DNA from: Brevibacillus sp. SYP-B805
GTDB taxonomy: Bacteria > Bacillota > Bacilli > Brevibacillales > Brevibacillaceae
Reading direction: 5' to 3'
Assembly: GCF_011059135.1 (NCBI RefSeq)
Contig: NZ_JAALGD010000020.1
Span: 1 to 64,000 of the forward strand
Length of the DNA stretch: 64,000 bases
Below are positions 1 through 34,424 of this stretch, piece by piece (the stretch's first letter is position 1; each line of letters starts with the position of its first letter). The position numbers and the translations under genes are program-made. Under the pieces are notes generated by a model that did no database searches, was not told where the DNA came from, and saw only the letters and a list, made by a program, of their open reading frames with translations.

Positions 1-84
1 CGGCTACCGCCATTCTACACCTTTACTCATGAAAAAAGGTCAATCAGATGTTACTCTGATTGACCTCATAATACGGAAACACCC

Positions 85-190
85 AGATGTTGAGCCCCCT
101 GCCCGCGTCGCGTTTCGGAGCGGACACGGCAAACTTCCTCGCGGGTCGTCAAGAGAGCGAGCAGGAACCATCATCCATGACCTCTCCTTT
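85..190 (+). repeat. Truncated copy (3' ~105 nt) of the ~190-nt dispersed structured repeat (copy A).
   Basis: Sequence tgagccccctgcccgcgtcgcgtttcggagcgga...cgcgggtcgtcaagagagcgagcaggaaccatcatccatga is near-identical to the repeats at 3181-3290, 27135-27245 (reverse complement) and 34283-34378. Six-frame translation differs between copies, so it is not protein-coding. Confidence 0.6.
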
Positions 191-2840: not shown

Positions 2841-2900
2841 GCATACGGACGCTTGTACCCGGGCAGGATAAAAATATCCTGCATCAACCGGGAGGCCGAC

Positions 2901-3050
2901 ATGGAAAAGAAAAATCGTTTGGATGAATTGCCGATCGCCTCGCTGACCGAAGAGCAGCTCCGGCGCCTGAAACAGGCGGAGGACCAGCTCAATCAGGAGG
3001 GAAACGGCATCTATCTGATTGCGCTGCAAAAAGAAACCCCGTCGTCGTAA
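2901..3050 (+). CDS. Small hypothetical protein (~49 aa, MEKKNRLDELPIASLTEEQLRRLKQAEDQLNQEGNGIYLIALQKETPSS).
   Basis: Internal ATG of the 2853-3050 ORF, with GGGAGG nearby. I recognise no family. Confidence 0.3.
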   Translation: MEKKNRLDELPIASLTEEQLRRLKQAEDQLNQEGNGIYLIALQKETPSS

Positions 3051-3074
3051 CGGGGTCAGACTGATGACAAACGT

Positions 3075-3275
3075 ATGTTTGGGGTATGGCGTAATGGGGC
3101 CAGGCGAGCTCCTTTGACGACCGACGAAGCGGAGAAACAAAGACGCGGGGGCCACAGGGGGCGTGAGTCTCACATCCCTGAGACGCCCGGATGTTGAGCC
3201 CCCTGCCCGCGTCGCGTTTCGGAGCGGACAAAAGCCCACTTCCTCGCGGGTCGTCAAGAGAGCGAGCAGGAACCA
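3075..3275 (+). repeat. Full-length copy (B) of the ~190-nt structured repeat.
   Basis: atggcgtaatggggccaggcgagctcctttgacgaccg...gggcgtgagtctcacatccctgagacgccc...tgagccccctgcccgcgtcgcgtttcggagcgg...cgggtcgtcaagagagcgagcaggaaccat. The 5' segment gagctcctttgacgaccg is complementary to the 3' segment cgggtcgtcaagagagc, giving a long closing stem. There is an internal hairpin gggcg-tgag-tctca/tgagacgccc. Confidence 0.65.
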
Positions 3276-3367
3276 TTACCCAAGATCGACCGACCATATC
3301 TGCACATGGACCCCGTTGTCATAACGGGGTTTTTGCCGTTGAGCATCGCTTACGTAGGCGGGGTTAT

Positions 3368-3625: not shown

Positions 3626-5233
3626 CTAAAACGGCGGACGGAGATGCAGCTGACCGTTCAGGCGGAACGCGACCTCCAGGGTAAAGGGCGTGATGCGGCT
3701 GCCGGTCTGTTTTTCCCGGCGCGTGAGCCGCACCGATTCGATGAGGAAGCGCAGCAGCCTGTTTTTCTCCGCCTTGCCGCTCAAGGCGTGATAAACGGCG
3801 GGGAACGATTGGAGCCGCTCGGCGAGCCGTTCTTTTTGCCCATCATCCAGCTGTTGGGGAGACGGCTGTTTTTCTTTAAGGAGCATGTTCAGCCTGCCCA
3901 ATTGATCGGATATCTCTGACCGTCTCCGGATAAACTCCTCGGAAGTGTATACCCCGGTCTCAAAGCCGTGGTAGACGGCGGCCAGCTGTTTTTGCAGGGA
4001 TGTCCGCTGCCTGGACAGGGCGGCGGCGGATCGGTCGGCTGGGGAGGCTCGGCGCTGCTTTCCGGCCGCTGCATGGGCAGCGATCATGCGGCGGATCCGC
4101 TCCGGCGCGGGCGGCTCGACGCAGGCGAGAAAGGAGAGAAGCATCTCTTCCACGGCCCGGTACTTCACATAGGTGCAGCCTGCGGTTGTGCACCAGAGCA
4201 TCTCCTTTTCATAGACGCTCACGCTGCCGTCCTTTTTGCGATAGGTACAGCGGGAAGCCTGCCGCACCATCTTTTTGCCGCACAGTCCGCAGCGGATCAG
4301 GCCGGATAGTTCCGACGGGCTCTGGTCGAGAGGGATGGAGGGGCGGCGGCGCTGCCGTTTGTGATGCACCTGCTGGTACACGTCGGGAGAGATGATGGGG
4401 GGATGGGCATTTGGTACGATGATCCATTCGTCCGGCGGCCGTCTCGCGCGTTTCCGCTGTGTCTCAACCGTCGTGCTGTAGCGGATCTCCCCGATATATA
4501 CCGGATTGTGCAGGATTTTTTTAACCGCAGAGGCATTCCATTCCGGTAGCCCGGTGGGGGAAGGAATGCCGCTGTTGGTCAGGAGGGAGGCGATGGTCCG
4601 GCAGCCCAGCTCTCTCCCGTTCAGGCCCTCCAGGTACAGCCGGTAGATCAGCCGGACGACTTCCGCTTCCCCTGGCTCGATCACCAACCGCTGTGTCCTC
4701 GGATTGGTCCGGTAGCCGTAGGCGGGCCTGGAGCCCATGAAGCGTCCCGACATGGCGTAGGCGTATTTGGCCCCCTGCATCCGTTCGCGAATGGTTTCAA
4801 ATTCCTCGCGGGAGAGAAACATTTCGAAACGGATCTGCCGCAGATCGTTGACATTTTTGGGATCATACAGCCGGTAGGGGGTCAGGATGAAGATCCGTTT
4901 CCGACGGATCAGCTCGTAGACCCGTCCGTAATCCTGAAAATCGCCCCGCGTCAGCCGGGAGATTTCTTTCACGGCGATGCAGTCGTACCTGCCCTCCTCC
5001 AGATCAGCCAGTACCTGGCTGAAGACGGGCCGGGATTCGATCTTGTCGCCGCTGCCGATTTCCTCTGCGAGGTCGTAGGGAATGCCGTACTCGCCCAACA
5101 CGCGTTCCATGACGCTCCGCTGCATGGCGATGGTATCCTCGCCGGTCCGTTTTTCCCGTTCCGCATCTTCCCGGGAACGGCGGAGGTAGCTGACGATCCG
5201 CCTGATTCTTGCGCCTGCCGGCAGTTTGTTCAT
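3626..5233 (-). CDS. Large serine recombinase (535 aa; resolvase catalytic domain, recombinase domain, zinc ribbon).
   Basis: N-terminus ...IVSYLRRSREDAE...RPVFSQVLADLEEGRYDCIAVKEISRLTRG is resolvase-like. The central part PAYGYRTNPRTQRLVIEPGEAEVVRLIYRLYLEG...IPSPTG...WNASAVKKILHNPVYIG is recombinase-like. CGLCGKKM...C..GC is a zinc ribbon, followed by a C-terminal coiled coil. Confidence 0.85.
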   Translation of the reverse strand: MNKLPAGARIRRIVSYLRRSREDAEREKRTGEDTIAMQRSVMERVLGEYGIPYDLAEEIGSGDKIESRPVFSQVLADLEEGRYDCIAVKEISRLTRGDFQDYGRVYELIRRKRIFILTPYRLYDPKNVNDLRQIRFEMFLSREEFETIRERMQGAKYAYAMSGRFMGSRPAYGYRTNPRTQRLVIEPGEAEVVRLIYRLYLEGLNGRELGCRTIASLLTNSGIPSPTGLPEWNASAVKKILHNPVYIGEIRYSTTVETQRKRARRPPDEWIIVPNAHPPIISPDVYQQVHHKRQRRRPSIPLDQSPSELSGLIRCGLCGKKMVRQASRCTYRKKDGSVSVYEKEMLWCTTAGCTYVKYRAVEEMLLSFLACVEPPAPERIRRMIAAHAAAGKQRRASPADRSAAALSRQRTSLQKQLAAVYHGFETGVYTSEEFIRRRSEISDQLGRLNMLLKEKQPSPQQLDDGQKERLAERLQSFPAVYHALSGKAEKNRLLRFLIESVRLTRREKQTGSRITPFTLEVAFRLNGQLHLRPPF

Positions 5234-5318: not shown

Positions 5319-5795
5319 TTAATCCCAGATCAGGGGCCGCTCAAGCCCCGCCATCCGCATGTACTGCAGGAACTGGCCGGTATGCACCGCATCGTGGTAA
5401 GCGATGCGCAGCAGCATGTCACCCAGGGGGCGCTGATACCCGACATCGCTGCGGTCGATGATGCGCGTGTCCAGTTCGTCTTCATCCAGCGTCCGTATAT
5501 AGGCAAGGAACGCCTCAAACAGCGGTGTGCCCAGCGCGATTTCCCGTTCGACCGAGACGATCGGCTCCTCCTTGTAAGGAGCATCAGGGATCGCCGCATG
5601 GGCCGAACCGTTATGGAGAAGGATCTGATGGTACTCGAAGGTGGCCGTACACACATGACGGATCATTTCGCCAAAAGAGTAGGCTTCCTTGTCCGGCCTC
5701 CAGCCCAGCCACTCATCGGGCAGGGCTCGCCACGCAAGGATGGATCGGCGTCTGGTTTCTTGAAAATGAAGAATGATGGCATCGATGGCATTCAT
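5319..5795 (-). CDS. DinB/YfiT-like (DinB_2) metal-dependent hydrolase family protein (158 aa).
   Basis: ATG at 5795 with GAAGGAGG upstream. MNAIDAIILHFQETRRRSILAWRALPDEW...HDAVHTGQFLQYMRMAGL is typical DinB_2. The longer six-frame ORF (to 6407) is a GC-driven extension overlapping arsR on the other strand. Confidence 0.7.
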   Translation of the reverse strand: MNAIDAIILHFQETRRRSILAWRALPDEWLGWRPDKEAYSFGEMIRHVCTATFEYHQILLHNGSAHAAIPDAPYKEEPIVSVEREIALGTPLFEAFLAYIRTLDEDELDTRIIDRSDVGYQRPLGDMLLRIAYHDAVHTGQFLQYMRMAGLERPLIWD

Positions 5796-5861
5796 GGAAT
5801 AACCTCCTTCGCTCTGAATATCCCCATTGTACTGCATGAATGATTCGGTTATGATCGAAGT

Positions 5862-6563
5862 ATGAATGCATATCCTGATTTTGCCTATGTTGCCGGATTG
5901 ATCGGGGATCCCACCCGGGCGGCGATGCTGGACAGCCTTTTGGACGGCCGCGCTTTGCCGGCGAGTGAACTGGCTTATCTGGCCCGGGTATCGCCCCAGA
6001 CGGCCAGCGCCCATCTTGCCAAATTGGTCGAAGGGAAGCTGCTCGCGGTGGAGACGCACGGCCGTCACCGCTATTACCGTCTGGCCGGCGCGCATGTCGC
6101 CCAGGTGCTTGAGGCGCTGACCACCCTGGCGCCGCCCGTGCAGGTTCGGTCGCTCCGGCAGTCCGATCGGCTGAAGGAAGTGCGCCATGCCCGCACCTGC
6201 TATGACCATCTGGCCGGCCAGCTGGGGGTGGAGCTGACCCGGACGTTCGTGACGCGCGGATTCCTGCGGGAAGCGGATCGGGAGTACCGGATCACCGAGG
6301 TAGGGAAGCGCTGGTTTTCCGACTTTGGCATCGATGTGGAAGCGATCCGCCAAAAACGGCGCTCGCTTGCCCGTCCATGCCTGGACTGGAGCGAACGGCG
6401 CCACCATTTGGCGGGAGCATTGGGAGCCGCGCTTGCCAGCCGGCTGTTTGAGCTCGGCTGGATCGTTCGCGTCCCGTCAAGCCGCGCCGTGCGCATCACG
6501 GAGAAAGGGAGGGAACATTTGGCCCACCAGTTGGGCATCGAAACAGCAGGCCGGTTGACATAA
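5862..6563 (+). CDS. ArsR-family winged-helix transcriptional regulator with a C-terminal extension (233 aa).
   Basis: GLIGDPTRAAMLDSLLDGRALPASELAYLARVSPQTASAHLAKLVEGKLLAVETHGRHRYYRL is an ArsR/SmtB HTH. It is divergent from the DinB-like gene. Confidence 0.75.
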   Translation: MNAYPDFAYVAGLIGDPTRAAMLDSLLDGRALPASELAYLARVSPQTASAHLAKLVEGKLLAVETHGRHRYYRLAGAHVAQVLEALTTLAPPVQVRSLRQSDRLKEVRHARTCYDHLAGQLGVELTRTFVTRGFLREADREYRITEVGKRWFSDFGIDVEAIRQKRRSLARPCLDWSERRHHLAGALGAALASRLFELGWIVRVPSSRAVRITEKGREHLAHQLGIETAGRLT

Positions 6564-6847
6564 GACAATCCGCCGCTCACATACCCTTTTGGCGAGGGGG
6601 GAGCGAGGTGGAGCAGACGGCGCTGCTTGTCGTGAGAGGATCGTATGGGGAGATTCGCGTCACCCAGCCCGAAGCGCCTGCGCGCGAGTCTGAACTGGAG
6701 GAGCTGTATGCCTTTTTGATCGAAGCGCTGCTTCGGCAAGCGGACGGGGAACCGTCCGGCTAGCGTCTGCCGGCCAACTGCCCGGCAGGCTTTTTTTGTC
6801 AGAGAAGAAAGCTTAGTTCCTTAAAGTGATAAAGTGACAGGGAAAGG

Positions 6848-6896
6848 CTGGGGGCCCCGCCCGGCGCAGCGATAGCTCAAGCCGGGTGGGTTTTTT
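6848..6896. repeat. Short member of the GC-rich palindromic repeat family (R5).
   Basis: gggggccccgcccggcgcagcgatagctcaagccgggtgggtttttt, preceded by the family-typical AT-rich flank ttaaagtgataaagtgacag. Confidence 0.55.
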
Positions 6897-6985
6897 ATGC
6901 CCGCAGCGCATAATTACCGTTGTTCGATGGACTATATAACTGTCGATCTCTTCATCGTGGAGAAAAAGGCAGAAGGAGGTGAGCG

Positions 6986-7195
6986 GTGATGACGGTCGCC
7001 ATGCAGGTAAAGCAGACGCTGGCCAGCCTGAAAAGCGCCCAGGCCAACCTGGAAATGTTTGCGCTGGAAACGCAGAACAAGCAGGCGAAAGAGATGTACA
7101 CAAAGGCGGCACAAACGGCGAAAACCATCTGCGACACGCTGGAGAAGCGCGTTACGGAATTGGAGTTTGAGGAGCCGCAGTACAAAGGGTTTTGA
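6986..7195 (+). CDS. DUF1657 protein (69 aa), first gene of the spoVA2mob-type operon.
   Basis: MMTVAMQVKQTLASLKSAQANLEMFALETQNKQAKEMYTKAAQ... matches the DUF1657 family. GAAGGAGG lies upstream. Confidence 0.8.
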   Translation: MMTVAMQVKQTLASLKSAQANLEMFALETQNKQAKEMYTKAAQTAKTICDTLEKRVTELEFEEPQYKGF

Positions 7196-7227
7196 TTGCA
7201 GTGCGGGTATGTTAAGGAGGTTCATCC

Positions 7228-8088
7228 ATGCCGGGTTGGCTCACGATCATCATCACGTCCTTTGTCTCTCTGGCCTATCTCTTTACCCTGGCGAGGCTGA
7301 TCGGGAAACGGCAGATGTCCCAGCTGTCCTTCGTCGATTTCATCGTCGCGATGACGATCGGCTCGATTGCCGCTGAAATGGCCACCAATATCGACGGTTC
7401 CATCATCCATGGCATGATCGCCATGACCATGTTCGGCCTGTTTCCCATTGTCTCCGAATGGCTGGCAATGAAAAGCAAGGTGATGCGCAATTTTTTTGAA
7501 GGGAGCGCTACCGTTCTGATCAAGGACGGCAAGATCCTGGAAGACAATCTGAAGCAGGAGCGGCTGAATCTGGAAGACTTGATGGATATGCTGCGCAACA
7601 AGAACGTGTTCAAAGCGGCCGATGTGGAATTTGCCGTCATGGAACCGAGCGGCAAGCTGAGCGTGCTGTTGAAAGCGGAAAACCAGCCGTTGACGGCCAA
7701 ACAGTTGGGGCTGCAGGTCGCCCCGGCGGAAGAGCCGCAAAACGTGATCATGGACGGTCAGATCATGGATGAACCGCTGGCGACCATCGGCTTGAACCGC
7801 GCATGGCTGAAGGCGGAGCTGGAGAAAGCGGGCGTTGCGCTGGAAAATGTGTTTTTGGGCCAGGTGGACAAGGGCGGCCAGCTGTATCTCGATCTGTATG
7901 ACGACAAGATTCAGGTGGCCCAGCCGACGGCGATGAAGCTCACCTTTGCCACCCTGAAAAAATGTCAGGCGGATCTGGAGCTGTACGCGCTGGCCACCCA
8001 AAGCGAAAAGATGAAGAAGACCTATGCGGTGGAAGCCAAACGGTTGAAACAGCTGATTGAAAAAATGGAGCCGCATTTGATGCGGTAA
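7228..8088 (+). CDS. DUF421 (YetF-like membrane domain) fused to a C-terminal DUF1657 (the '2Duf' protein of spoVA2mob operons), 286 aa.
   Basis: The N-terminal TM region has the YetF-like core ...LLKAENQPLTAKQLGL.... The C-terminal 60 aa (MKLTFATLKKCQADLELYALATQSEKMKKTYAVEAKRL) repeats the DUF1657 motif. RBS AAGGAGG. Confidence 0.8.
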   Translation: MPGWLTIIITSFVSLAYLFTLARLIGKRQMSQLSFVDFIVAMTIGSIAAEMATNIDGSIIHGMIAMTMFGLFPIVSEWLAMKSKVMRNFFEGSATVLIKDGKILEDNLKQERLNLEDLMDMLRNKNVFKAADVEFAVMEPSGKLSVLLKAENQPLTAKQLGLQVAPAEEPQNVIMDGQIMDEPLATIGLNRAWLKAELEKAGVALENVFLGQVDKGGQLYLDLYDDKIQVAQPTAMKLTFATLKKCQADLELYALATQSEKMKKTYAVEAKRLKQLIEKMEPHLMR

Positions 8089-26357: not shown

Positions 26358-26990
26358 TTAATAGAACCTTCGATTCTGAAAGCGCATGGCGTCGAAGGCG
26401 GCGACGCTTTCCGCCGGAACCCGCTTGCCGATGCGGGCCATCAGGCAGTTGGCCGGATGGGCGCAAATTTCCGGATCATCGGTCGCCATCCAGACCATGC
26501 CGACGCTGCCCATCACTTTTTCCATCACTTTGCGGTACTGCCAGACGTCAAGCCCTGTGCCTTTCAAATCCCAATGCCAGTAATACTCGGTCGTAATGAC
26601 GATGTAATCTTCCATCGCGTCATCGAGAAACGAGACGTGCAGCAGCGTTTTTGCCACACCGCCACTCCGCACCTTGGCGCTTACCTCGATGGCTCCCAGC
26701 TCCAGCAGATTCTCCAGCTTTGCCTGCGACCAGCGCTCCAGCGGGTCGGGATGGAGAAACGTGACATAGCCCAGGACCAACTCCCCATCGCGGGCCACGA
26801 CAATCCTTCCCTCGGGCAGCCCGGCGATCTCCACCAGCGCCTTTTGCTGCTGTTCGGGCGGCCGGAATGCTGTCAGCCCGTCGTCAAAGCGCATGGCCGC
26901 CAAGCGCTCCGGCTCCACCGGTCCTTCCACCAGCAGGGATCTTCCGCCAGCTTCCATTTCGTGGGAATAATATCGCTTGGTGTGAATCAT
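26358..26990 (-). CDS. acuA: Acetoin utilization protein AcuA (GNAT protein acetyltransferase).
   Basis: ...GELVLGYVTFLHPDPLERW...LLELGAIEVSAKVRSGGVAKTLL...YYWHWDLKG. It is first in acuABC. Confidence 0.8.
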   Translation of the reverse strand: MIHTKRYYSHEMEAGGRSLLVEGPVEPERLAAMRFDDGLTAFRPPEQQQKALVEIAGLPEGRIVVARDGELVLGYVTFLHPDPLERWSQAKLENLLELGAIEVSAKVRSGGVAKTLLHVSFLDDAMEDYIVITTEYYWHWDLKGTGLDVWQYRKVMEKVMGSVGMVWMATDDPEICAHPANCLMARIGKRVPAESVAAFDAMRFQNRRFY

Positions 26991-27132
26991 GCAGGTGATT
27001 CACCTCGGTTTCCTTGAGATTCCTTCCACTTTCATTATAACGGAGCGGTGCGCTTTTCACTCCATGTCCGTTTGACAACTTTTTGCCCAGAGAGGAGCCA
27101 TCTTCTCATTGTATAGACAAAGTCTGTCCTGT

Positions 27133-27325
27133 CATGGATGATGGTTCCCGCTCGCTCTCTTGACGACCGGCGAGGAAGTGGGCTTTTGTCCGCTCCGAAA
27201 CGCGACGCGGGCAGGGGGCTCAACACATCCGGGTGTCTCAGGGATGTGAGACTCACGCCCCCCGTTTCCCCGCGTCTGCGTTTCTTCGCTGAGTCGGTCG
27301 TCAAAGGAGCTCGCGTAGGCCCCAT
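27133..27325 (-). repeat. Full-length copy (C) of the ~190-nt structured repeat, reverse orientation.
   Basis: Its reverse complement aligns with copy B over ~190 nt (catggcgtgatggggcctacgcgagctcctttgacgaccgac...gaaccatcatccatga) with about 10 substitutions, including compensatory-looking changes in the stem. Confidence 0.65.
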
Positions 27326-27556
27326 CACGCCATGACTCGAACGCTTCTGCAACTTCGTGAAAAGGGGGAGGAGCTCCCGTTCCTTTCTGGAACCTCCATG
27401 ATAGAGAGCATTGCAAAAAAGTTGCGAAGCATACCAAAATCACCTTGACAACAAAGCGAAGCAAAAAAGACGCCTCCGTTTTCCCATGAACGGAAGCGCT
27501 TTGCAATCCTTTTATGACGTAAAAGCCATCTCCTGTGAGGGGAGGATTCCGCCTTC

Positions 27557-30759: not shown

Positions 30760-31050
30760 ATTGACAGAGCGGGTTTCGCTGTGTTACATATATGGCGAAT
30801 GGATGTTGGAAAACAGGGCGTTGAAAGACGAGAGTAGCAGGGCAGATCGCCATGAAGAGAGCTGGTGGATGGTGCAAACCAGCGGCGCCGCCTTTGTGAA
30901 TTACACGTCTGGAGCCAGCCGGACCCCACCGGACGGATCAGGCCGTTATCCTGTCGAGCGGAAAAGGTGCAGCGCGCCTTTTCAACTAGGGTGGTACCGC
31001 GAGAGCAATCTCGTCCCTATAGGGGGCGGGATTTTTTATTTTCAAGAAAA
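30760..31050 (+). promoter_or_regulatory. T-box riboswitch leader of tyrS (Tyr specifier UAC).
   Basis: AGAGA/GA-motif region around 30825. Specifier loop gaatTACAcg (UAC at 30902-30904, followed by a purine). Conserved T-box AACTAGGGTGGTACCGCG at 30983-31000. A hairpin plus T-run sits at about 31013-31045. Confidence 0.8.
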
Positions 31051-31113
31051 GTGTGCCCCGTCCGACTTCCCGAAGGCTTTCGGCGGGCGGGAAAAAAGGA
31101 GTGGACAGCCAAC

Positions 31114-34200: not shown

Positions 34201-34282
34201 TTTACCTGCAATCATTGCTACCCTGTACACATACAGTCAATATTATAGCGCCGAAGGGAGCAAAGTCAAGAGAAAATCTTGG

Positions 34283-34378
34283 GTGAGCCCCCGCCCGCGT
34301 CGCGTTTCGGAGCGGAGACTGCCAACTTCTTTGCGGGTCGTCAAGAGAGCGAGCAGGAACCATCACCCATGATCGACG
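34283..34378 (+). repeat. Truncated copy (D) of the ~190-nt structured repeat.
   Basis: tgagcccccgcccgcgtcgcgtttcggagcggagactgccaacttctttgcgggtcgtcaagagagcgagcaggaaccatcacccatga. The internal loop region diverges from the other copies. Confidence 0.6.
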
Positions 34379-34424
34379 GATTTTGTCTGCACACTGGGGT
34401 TTTCTAAGTATATCGAAAGGTTTA

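Follow-up and report, generated by a model that had tools for sequence, protein, structure and literature searches.

Four repeats of one intergenic sequence lie within positions 1 to 64,000 of contig NZ_JAALGD010000020.1 of Brevibacillus sp. SYP-B805, the whole of which is referred to here as the window, and the question they raise is whether they are genes for a structured RNA or the remains of something that moves. A first-pass annotation, made from the letters alone, had described a dispersed element of ~190 nt with a long closing stem and had left both readings standing. The evidence given below indicates that all four derive from a mobile element of ~340 bp that carries no gene, of which they are worn or shortened copies, and this element is very probably a non-autonomous DNA transposon (MITE) of thermophilic Brevibacillus and related Paenibacillaceae. 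Its targeting of terminator hairpins, together with the duplication of the whole hairpin, is an unusual habit for an otherwise ordinary kind of element.

A blastn search with positions 3041-3300 against the whole window returns exactly four copies, with all remaining matches at E > 0.5. Besides the self match of copy B (3041-3300, +), these are copy C (27333-27132, -; 90.1% over 203 nt), copy A (76-180, +; 89.6% over 106 nt) and copy D (34284-34380, +; 88.9% over 99 nt). An nhmmer profile made from 42 copies in relatives finds the same four only, at E-values of 3e-57 to 4e-25. The first-pass count of four is therefore borne out by both methods, with no fifth copy in the window, although the identity between copies, which had been put above 90%, is about 89-90% by blastn. 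Copies B and C are separated by indels of 1, 1 and 2 nt, and indels of this size argue against coding, which the first-pass annotation had also denied.

Alignment of copies together with their flanks reveals conservation beyond the element as first delimited, by ~130 nt on the upstream side and 25 nt on the downstream side. What had been taken for full copies, at 3075-3275 and 27133-27325, are parts of a unit of ~340 bp whose ends lie beyond those coordinates. As defined by 42 distinct full-length copies in relatives, the complete element is 318-348 bp long and has no ORF. It begins with a 5' inverted repeat, CAGACTGAWGACAAAC, followed by a 5' region of ~100 nt with two small hairpins, a rod of ~200 nt (bounded by CATGGAGTGATGGG and ATCACCCATG), and a 3' inverted repeat, GGACTTTGTCTACACRCTG. 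The 5' end reads CAGACTGA(A/T)GACAAAC and the 3' end GGACTTTGTCTACAC(G/A)CTG. The terminal inverted repeats (TIRs) are imperfect, with 12/16 matches between the 5' end, CAGACTGAAGACAAAC, and the reverse complement of the 3' end, CAGCGTGTAGACAAAG; the consensus is CAGMSTGWWGACAAA. The family shows the small size (318-348 nt) and want of coding capacity (indels of 1-2 nt, no conserved ORF) of a MITE, many dispersed copies at unrelated loci, and terminal inverted repeats; within the window, the 5' repeat is clean in copy B alone. The copies in the window and their parts are placed as follows.

74-181 (+): copy A, a fragment consisting of the 3' half of the rod only (blastn, alignment, nhmmer)
3036-3056 (+): left target hairpin of copy B, ACCCCGTCGTCGTAACGGGGT, 19/21 identical to 3310-3330, with a minus-strand terminator score
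3057-3309 (+): copy B, a 253-bp deletion derivative (alignment to full-length relatives; nhmmer envelope 3055-3309)
3057-3072 (+): 5' TIR of copy B, CAGACTGATGACAAAC, an exact match to the family consensus
3085-3284 (+): inner rod of copy B, ~200 nt, corresponding to the element of the first-pass annotation (folds, consensus structure, pair counts)
3291-3309 (+): degenerate 3' terminal repeat of copy B, CGACCATATCTGCACATGG, 11/19 matches to the consensus GGACTTTGTCTACACGCTG
3310-3335 (+): right target hairpin of copy B, ACCCCGTTGTCATAACGGGGT, then TTTTT, a plus-strand intrinsic terminator (sequence; pairing in the fold)
about 27107-27410 (-): copy C (blastn, alignment; nhmmer 27108-27360, envelope to 27397)
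34273-34396 (+): copy D, an internal-deletion or 5'-truncated derivative (blastn, alignment, nhmmer)

Copy B is made up of a 5' TIR, the inner rod and a degenerate 3' end; the 5' region of ~100 nt is missing, with the 5' repeat joined almost directly to the rod, and the two ends of this copy match each other poorly (6/16). Copy C is nearly full length: its rod lies at 27133-27334, its 3' repeat ends at 27107, most, though not all, of the 5' region remains, and its 5' TIR is degenerate; its flanks hold no recognisable duplication. What survives in copy D is one half of the rod, on the 3' side, and a good 3' TIR, TTTTGTCTGCACACTG, ending at 34396, with a possible remnant of the 5' region at 34255-34283, and copy A has neither terminal repeat. 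Only B, among the four, combines a recognisable 5' TIR with a duplication of the target. The window copies are old, as seen from the 19/21 duplication and degenerate ends of B and the fragmentary state of A and D. At the 3' end of copy C (27135-27108, -), mutations have created an outward-facing sigma-70-like promoter, ATGACA-16-TACAAT (10/12), and this putative promoter, absent from the other copies, points at the ORF at 26358-26990.

The duplication is the feature that identifies the target. Each complete copy is followed by a hairpin whose sequence differs from copy to copy, and the same hairpin stands directly upstream of the 5' repeat, in direct orientation. A direct repeat abutting the element on both sides (score >= 14) was found at 26 of 35 distinct full-length loci, as against 5 of 500 mismatched flank pairs, and a recognisable duplication is absent at the other nine. 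The duplications are 16-38 nt long (median 25), 14 of the 26 are perfect, and 23 start with A. All of the repeats fold, each into a hairpin specific to its locus, and at 21 of the 26 the left copy is preceded by an A tract, the right copy is followed by a T tract, or both, as in terminators. At one locus (L013) the two hairpin copies score as terminators on opposite strands. In the case of copy B, the order is AAAAAGAA-ACCCCGTCGTCGTAACGGGGT, element, ACCCCGTTGTCATAACGGGGT-TTTTT, where AAAAAGAA is the A-rich tract before the left hairpin, and the stop codon of a small ORF (2853-3050) sits in the loop of that left hairpin. Since the same hairpin is found on both sides, the target of copy B was a bidirectional terminator that was duplicated upon insertion. 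The first-pass annotation had named flanking duplications and terminal inverted repeats as the marks of a MITE; both exist, but are visible only after the element is extended and compared with its relatives.

A tracts before the left hairpin (19 loci) outnumber T tracts after the right one (11 loci) among the 26 duplications, with 10 loci having the A tract only and two the T tract only. This asymmetry hints at a preferred orientation of the element relative to the terminator, and is too weak to build on; a crude count based on neighbouring genes gives 14 sense and 15 antisense insertions, without clear bias. The neighbours of the window copies are a serine recombinase, PBP1A, ribosomal protein S4 and an SLH-domain protein. 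The large serine recombinase (Resolvase, Recombinase and Zn_ribbon_recom domains; 3626-5233, -) lies beside a DinB-family protein (5319-6407, -), and the region may be the edge of an integrated element. The earlier suggestion of a link between copy B and this recombinase element finds no support; B is located in the terminator of ORF 2853-3050.

Dispersed copies are present in relatives of the host. When one genome per species was scanned with the invariant 18-mer GTCGTCAAGAGAGCGAGC, in a set that does not include the genome of the window itself, 15 exact-anchor copies came from Brevibacillus aydinogluensis PDF25, eight from a Paenibacillaceae MAG and one from B. thermoruber, in addition to chance hits; these copies are 73-92% identical to B. 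A metagenome scan with the 3' repeat added 88 loci, among which many further copies were found. Pairwise identity among the 42 distinct full-length copies ranges from 0.75 to 0.997. Internal-deletion derivatives that keep both ends occur at L017, L029, L044, L074 and L102, and copy B is another of them. Some copies form tandem arrays with a period of 370 nt, that is, element plus hairpin. L056 (13491-14346) holds at least two complete tandem copies and a third cut by the end of the locus, separated by the duplicated hairpin, and L050 has two copies in tandem. Some contigs start or end inside copies (L011 and L035, for example). Among the fetched loci, all of which were fetched through the element itself, there is no empty site; the only difference seen is one of copy number, between the three copies of L056 and the single copy at the same locus in B. 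aydinogluensis (L005:3044-3398). The mobility of the element is inferred from its anatomy.

The same ends are used by other small elements. MITE types of 43 to 305 nt in other Firmicutes carry the same terminal repeat, related element types have perfect 19-bp repeats, and in metagenome loci unrelated small elements with the same 19-mer are also placed between duplicated hairpins. A 305-nt type (type 2) lies next to a copy in L033 and occurs again in L091, further types with this repeat and with duplicated hairpins are present in L048, L061 and L079, and 43-nt repeat-loop-repeat palindromes, which are perfect hairpins of two terminal repeats, stand alone in L061, L079 and L096. A low-GC Bacillaceae genome from a metagenome holds an unrelated MITE of 158 nt (L098:2146-2303) with a perfect 28-nt terminator duplication; at least eight copies of it (L098, L077, L106, L116, L118, L120, L121 and L038) are 95-99% identical, and from this identity it looks to have been recently active. 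A 1187-bp element (L061:2269-3455) has composite inverted repeats of ~75 bp built from the same 19-mer, and its passenger ORF encodes a 204-aa secreted barnase-like ribonuclease, with no transposase. A 3' terminal repeat followed by a terminator hairpin is seen in Peribacillus sp. R9-11 plasmid pA (L126:3003-3022) and in B. laterosporus B9 (L127:3008-3026), in regions that the records leave unannotated or label 'hypothetical protein'. Beside a MITE copy in L107 there is a low-GC insert (5985-7520) whose two small ORFs encode 218 and 190 aa. A direct repeat of 66 nt flanks this insert and takes in a terminator hairpin as well as the 3' end of the gene next to it; the insert has neither a transposase nor inverted repeats.

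The part of the element that first drew attention, the rod, consists of a long closing helix, a three-way junction and an apical hairpin, and the closing helix and inner hairpin fold as the first-pass annotation described. The minimum free energy is -122 kcal/mol, with z-scores of -4.9 (B) and -7.7 (C), and none of the shuffled sequences reaches so stable a fold; being a palindrome, the sequence folds just as stably on the reverse strand. So stable a fold, with ~40 conserved nucleotides upstream of it and a different hairpin, often with a T-run, behind every complete copy, could belong to stand-alone genes for small RNAs, each making a rod-shaped transcript of ~200-250 nt from a promoter in the conserved 5' region and ending at a terminator of its own. 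In an alignment of 18 copies, 98.3% of cells are indeed paired, and three of 60 pairs have changed on both sides, namely 53-159, which splits by lineage, 82-138 (in L027 and L030) and 9-216 (in B), a number reached by 2 of 500 shuffles. The covariation score, 0.061 against 0.047 for shuffles, is accompanied by 35 of the 60 pairs that never vary, and helix 2 (16 pairs) is invariant in these copies; in a wider set of 46, a subfamily of ~20 copies has one helix-2 pair broken and uncompensated. The covariation for which the first-pass annotation had proposed an analysis of aligned copies amounts to the three two-sided pairs, set against the 35 invariant ones and the uncompensated break, and of the differences between B and C that had been placed on both sides of stems, one is compensatory (pair 9-216, G-C to A-U) and the others are not.

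Genes for a free-standing RNA are nevertheless improbable. The downstream hairpin is repeated upstream and so comes from the target, not from the element, for which reason the hairpins were also rejected as covarying terminators of small RNAs. No sigma-70-type promoter was found in the full-length copies L004 and L013, insertions in sense and antisense are nearly equal in number, and shared one-sided changes of the G.U and A.C kinds stand at only 7:5, without a clear strand signal. The invariant G.U pairs, considered as a mark of a transcribed strand, were likewise set aside, being inherited from the ancestral sequence. Rfam, searched at gathering and at permissive thresholds with the window and with a full-length relative, has no family for the element; the best sub-threshold matches are unrelated (E >= 0.04). 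This agrees with the first-pass statement that no match to tRNA, tmRNA, RNase P, SRP or T-box features could be recognised. The only Rfam match in the window is an unrelated T-box leader (30812-31021, +; RF00230, 110 bits, E 2e-23), with an ORF starting ~30 nt downstream of it, at 31053. With no Rfam match, no sigma-70-type promoter, no clear orientation bias and little covariation, the first-pass reading as a free-standing structured RNA is not upheld.

The pattern of substitution in the rod is more readily understood at the level of the element. Nucleotide diversity is 0.051 in paired and 0.249 in unpaired columns (p = 3e-9), a fivefold lower variability in stems than in loops. Private variants, found in a single copy, are about as frequent in stems as in loops (0.23 and 0.34 per column, not significant), whereas shared variants, present in at least two copies, are 3.4 times rarer in stems than in loops (0.25 versus 0.86 per column); the contrast between private and shared variants has p = 0.015. 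Among stem variants, 14 of 25 shared ones preserve pairing as against 8 of 30 private ones (p = 0.05), a difference that would also suit a functional RNA. Because private variants are unbiased and shared ones are depleted in stems, the constraint acts on the element that propagates and not on each inserted copy. We read this as neutral decay of inserted copies, with stems retained in the lineages that keep multiplying. Gene conversion between the two arms was considered as a source of stem conservation and rejected, as the changes on both sides are too few. Most likely, the rod serves the element's own mobility or tolerability, for instance by way of subterminal binding sites or of a folded single-stranded form, and a host function at the individual loci is unlikely. 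Since relatives with terminal repeats alone have also multiplied, the enzyme does not strictly need the rod, and for the same reason its strong conservation is not explained by a minimal MITE model.

A MITE depends on a transposase supplied from elsewhere, and searches of the fetched loci, about 1.1 Mb in all, revealed neither a transposase for these ends nor an autonomous partner. No large ORF adjoins any copy. Pairs of inverted terminal repeats 0.4-4 kb apart flank purA, purU or the barnase-like passenger gene, without a transposase; direct repeats of hairpins 0.5-3.5 kb apart yield only the transposase-less low-GC insertion of L107; and an all-against-all megablast of the loci for bounded repeats of 0.6-4 kb returns nothing IS-like. 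A phmmer search with the IS30 transposase InsI, covering 2667 ORFs of the window and of every locus, gave no match at E <= 10. A tblastn search of InsI against plasmids confirmed the query sequence and reached no Bacillales partner. A plasmid collection gave no match to the full element or to its 158-nt relative, and a search with short TIRs gave isolated ends only, with no transposase. Viral contigs scanned with both terminal repeats gave one chance match and then none. An IS30-type DDE transposase was not detected by phmmer among the ORFs of the loci and the window, and a partner may lie elsewhere in the genome.

The closest known behaviour is that of IS1630, an IS30-family element of Mycoplasma fermentans whose insertion sites are inverted repeats, variable both in sequence and in length, which it duplicates. 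Calcutt et al. are said to have traced these inverted repeats, in 1999, to rho-independent terminators. A long, variable duplication of terminator-derived inverted repeats is likewise what the present loci exhibit. Passages on IS1630 in two later papers give its unusually long and variable target duplications as 19-26 bp (PMC2853133) and 16-26 bp (PMC3317919), and the title of Calcutt et al. 1999, as cited in both, speaks of long variable duplications. IS1630 differs in being an autonomous mollicute IS of 1.4 kb, with an IS30-type transposase and 27-bp repeats, whereas the element described here has no ORF and carries a conserved 200-nt rod. Membership of the element in the IS30 family is not established; the ends of IS30, TGTAGATTCAAT..., and of the element, CAGCGTGTAGACAAAGTCC, have only the hexamer TGTAGA in common, at an offset of 5 nt. 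A literature search covering Brevibacillus MITEs, ISs that duplicate terminators and the terminal-repeat sequences themselves found no description of the element and nothing beyond IS1630.

Class C group II introns also prefer to insert beside the stem-loops of intrinsic terminators. They are ribozymes of at least 600 nt with domains V/VI, detectable by Rfam, and have no inverted repeats and leave the hairpin unduplicated; the present element has both repeats and duplication, none of these intron features, and ends in CAG...CTG where a group II intron has GUGYG...AY boundaries. No intron model matches it in Rfam, in keeping with the first-pass statement that no group II intron boundaries were found. 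Cas1-Cas2 and casposons make staggered attacks that flank a palindromic repeat and duplicate the whole repeat. The likeness is one of mechanism only, as the element has no cas1 gene, CRISPR array or fixed repeat. Among classical bacterial MITEs, Correia/CREE, ERIC, RUP and BOX are, like the present element, small, without ORFs, multicopy and intergenic, with TIRs and long hairpins (PMC10969869). Such MITEs have short, fixed duplications such as TA, in contrast to the whole hairpin of 16-38 nt duplicated here, and none of those listed in PMC10969869, which makes no mention of Bacillus-type hosts, is reported to target or duplicate a whole terminator hairpin.

Other routes of movement can be weighed against the same anatomy. 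REP sequences and REPINs, with their RAYT enzymes, are also extragenic palindromes near the 3' ends of genes that form hairpin doublets, and a possible likeness is that a single-copy mobilising enzyme stands in place of an IS partner. By this account, which we consider improbable, the element would be moved as single-stranded DNA by a domesticated single-copy HUH enzyme (RAYT or IS200/IS605-type), not by a DDE transposase, with the terminal repeat and the 43-nt repeat-loop-repeat palindromes as REP hairpins. The free-standing 43-nt palindromes of other Firmicutes fit, as do the GTAG within the terminal repeat, the want of an IS-like partner in any locus, the conservation of one 19-mer over hosts of very different G+C content, and the foldback form of the whole element with its stems constrained in propagating lineages. 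On the other hand, IS200/IS605 elements and REPINs leave no target duplication, whereas one of 16-38 nt is present at 26 of 35 loci here, and in REPINs the hairpin is the repeated unit, in contrast to the flanking hairpins here, which differ from one locus to the next; no RAYT gene was seen in passing. A full copy of an IS200/IS605 element has no inverted repeats, inserts 3' of a fixed tetra- or pentanucleotide and has tnpB or iscB adjacent to it. An OMEGA relic, which the first-pass annotation had offered as an option, or an IS605 relic (a PATE, a TnpB/IscB omega-RNA) is ruled out by the TIRs, the target duplications and the lack of an adjacent TnpB/IscB gene.

Less probable still, and in our view hardly to be expected, is a SINE-like retroelement, copied from RNA by target-primed reverse transcription at nicked terminators. 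Copies that consist of the 3' part only (A and D in the window; L009, L011, L014 and L035) and the variable length of the duplication would be natural products of such a process. The excess of 3' fragments, however, is largely an effect of ascertainment, since both database scans were anchored on 3' sequence, and the duplications extend symmetrically about the hairpin. The element has terminal inverted repeats, both ends survive in deletion derivatives, and neither a reverse transcriptase nor an A-tail or internal promoter was found.

The reading of these repeats as a non-autonomous DNA transposon can be put into a sequence of steps. A transposase supplied in trans would recognise the terminal repeats and take a palindromic or cruciform terminator as its target. 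The two strands would be cut symmetrically, with a stagger, at the base of the stem, a position suggested by the 23 of 26 duplications that start with A, and with cuts so placed, repair of the gaps would copy the entire hairpin. Each side would then keep half of a bidirectional terminator, by which termination of the neighbouring genes would be preserved. The element itself would be transcribed only as an extension of a 3' UTR. After insertion, the proximal hairpin has lost its T-tract, so that transcripts are expected to read through the element and to stop at the distal hairpin. The result would be a 3' UTR longer by about 340 nt, with a very stable rod in either orientation. Classical MITEs are transcribed along with the genes beside them and can influence how the mRNA is processed, and Correia and ERIC elements provide precedents for RNase-mediated effects of such structures (PMC10969869).

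A bolder proposal, which we put forward as a long shot though a somewhat better one than the RNA-gene or REPIN-like accounts, is that the copies belong to an undescribed transposition system widespread in Firmicutes, in which an enzyme, possibly the product of a single-copy host gene, would read terminator hairpins by shape and not by sequence and attack them symmetrically at the base of the stem, with the rod as a required folded single-stranded cofactor or assembly site. If this were true, the terminator would be duplicated and gene expression preserved, and the rod would be no passive filler.

For annotation, elements of this kind yield spurious 'sRNA' and 'riboswitch' candidates, broken assemblies, tandem arrays and what are predicted to be long structured 3' UTRs. 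The transposase, once identified, would be a tool for structure-directed, gene-sparing integration. Stem constraint that acts only in propagating lineages illustrates cleanly how selection can operate on the element itself. In the Bacillales (Brevibacillus, Peribacillus and other Bacillaceae) and in Firmicute-like metagenome contigs, there appears to be a superfamily of elements with one conserved 19-bp end inside duplicated terminators. To rebuild the terminator on both sides is a strategy of harmless insertion, documented so far mainly for one mycoplasma IS.
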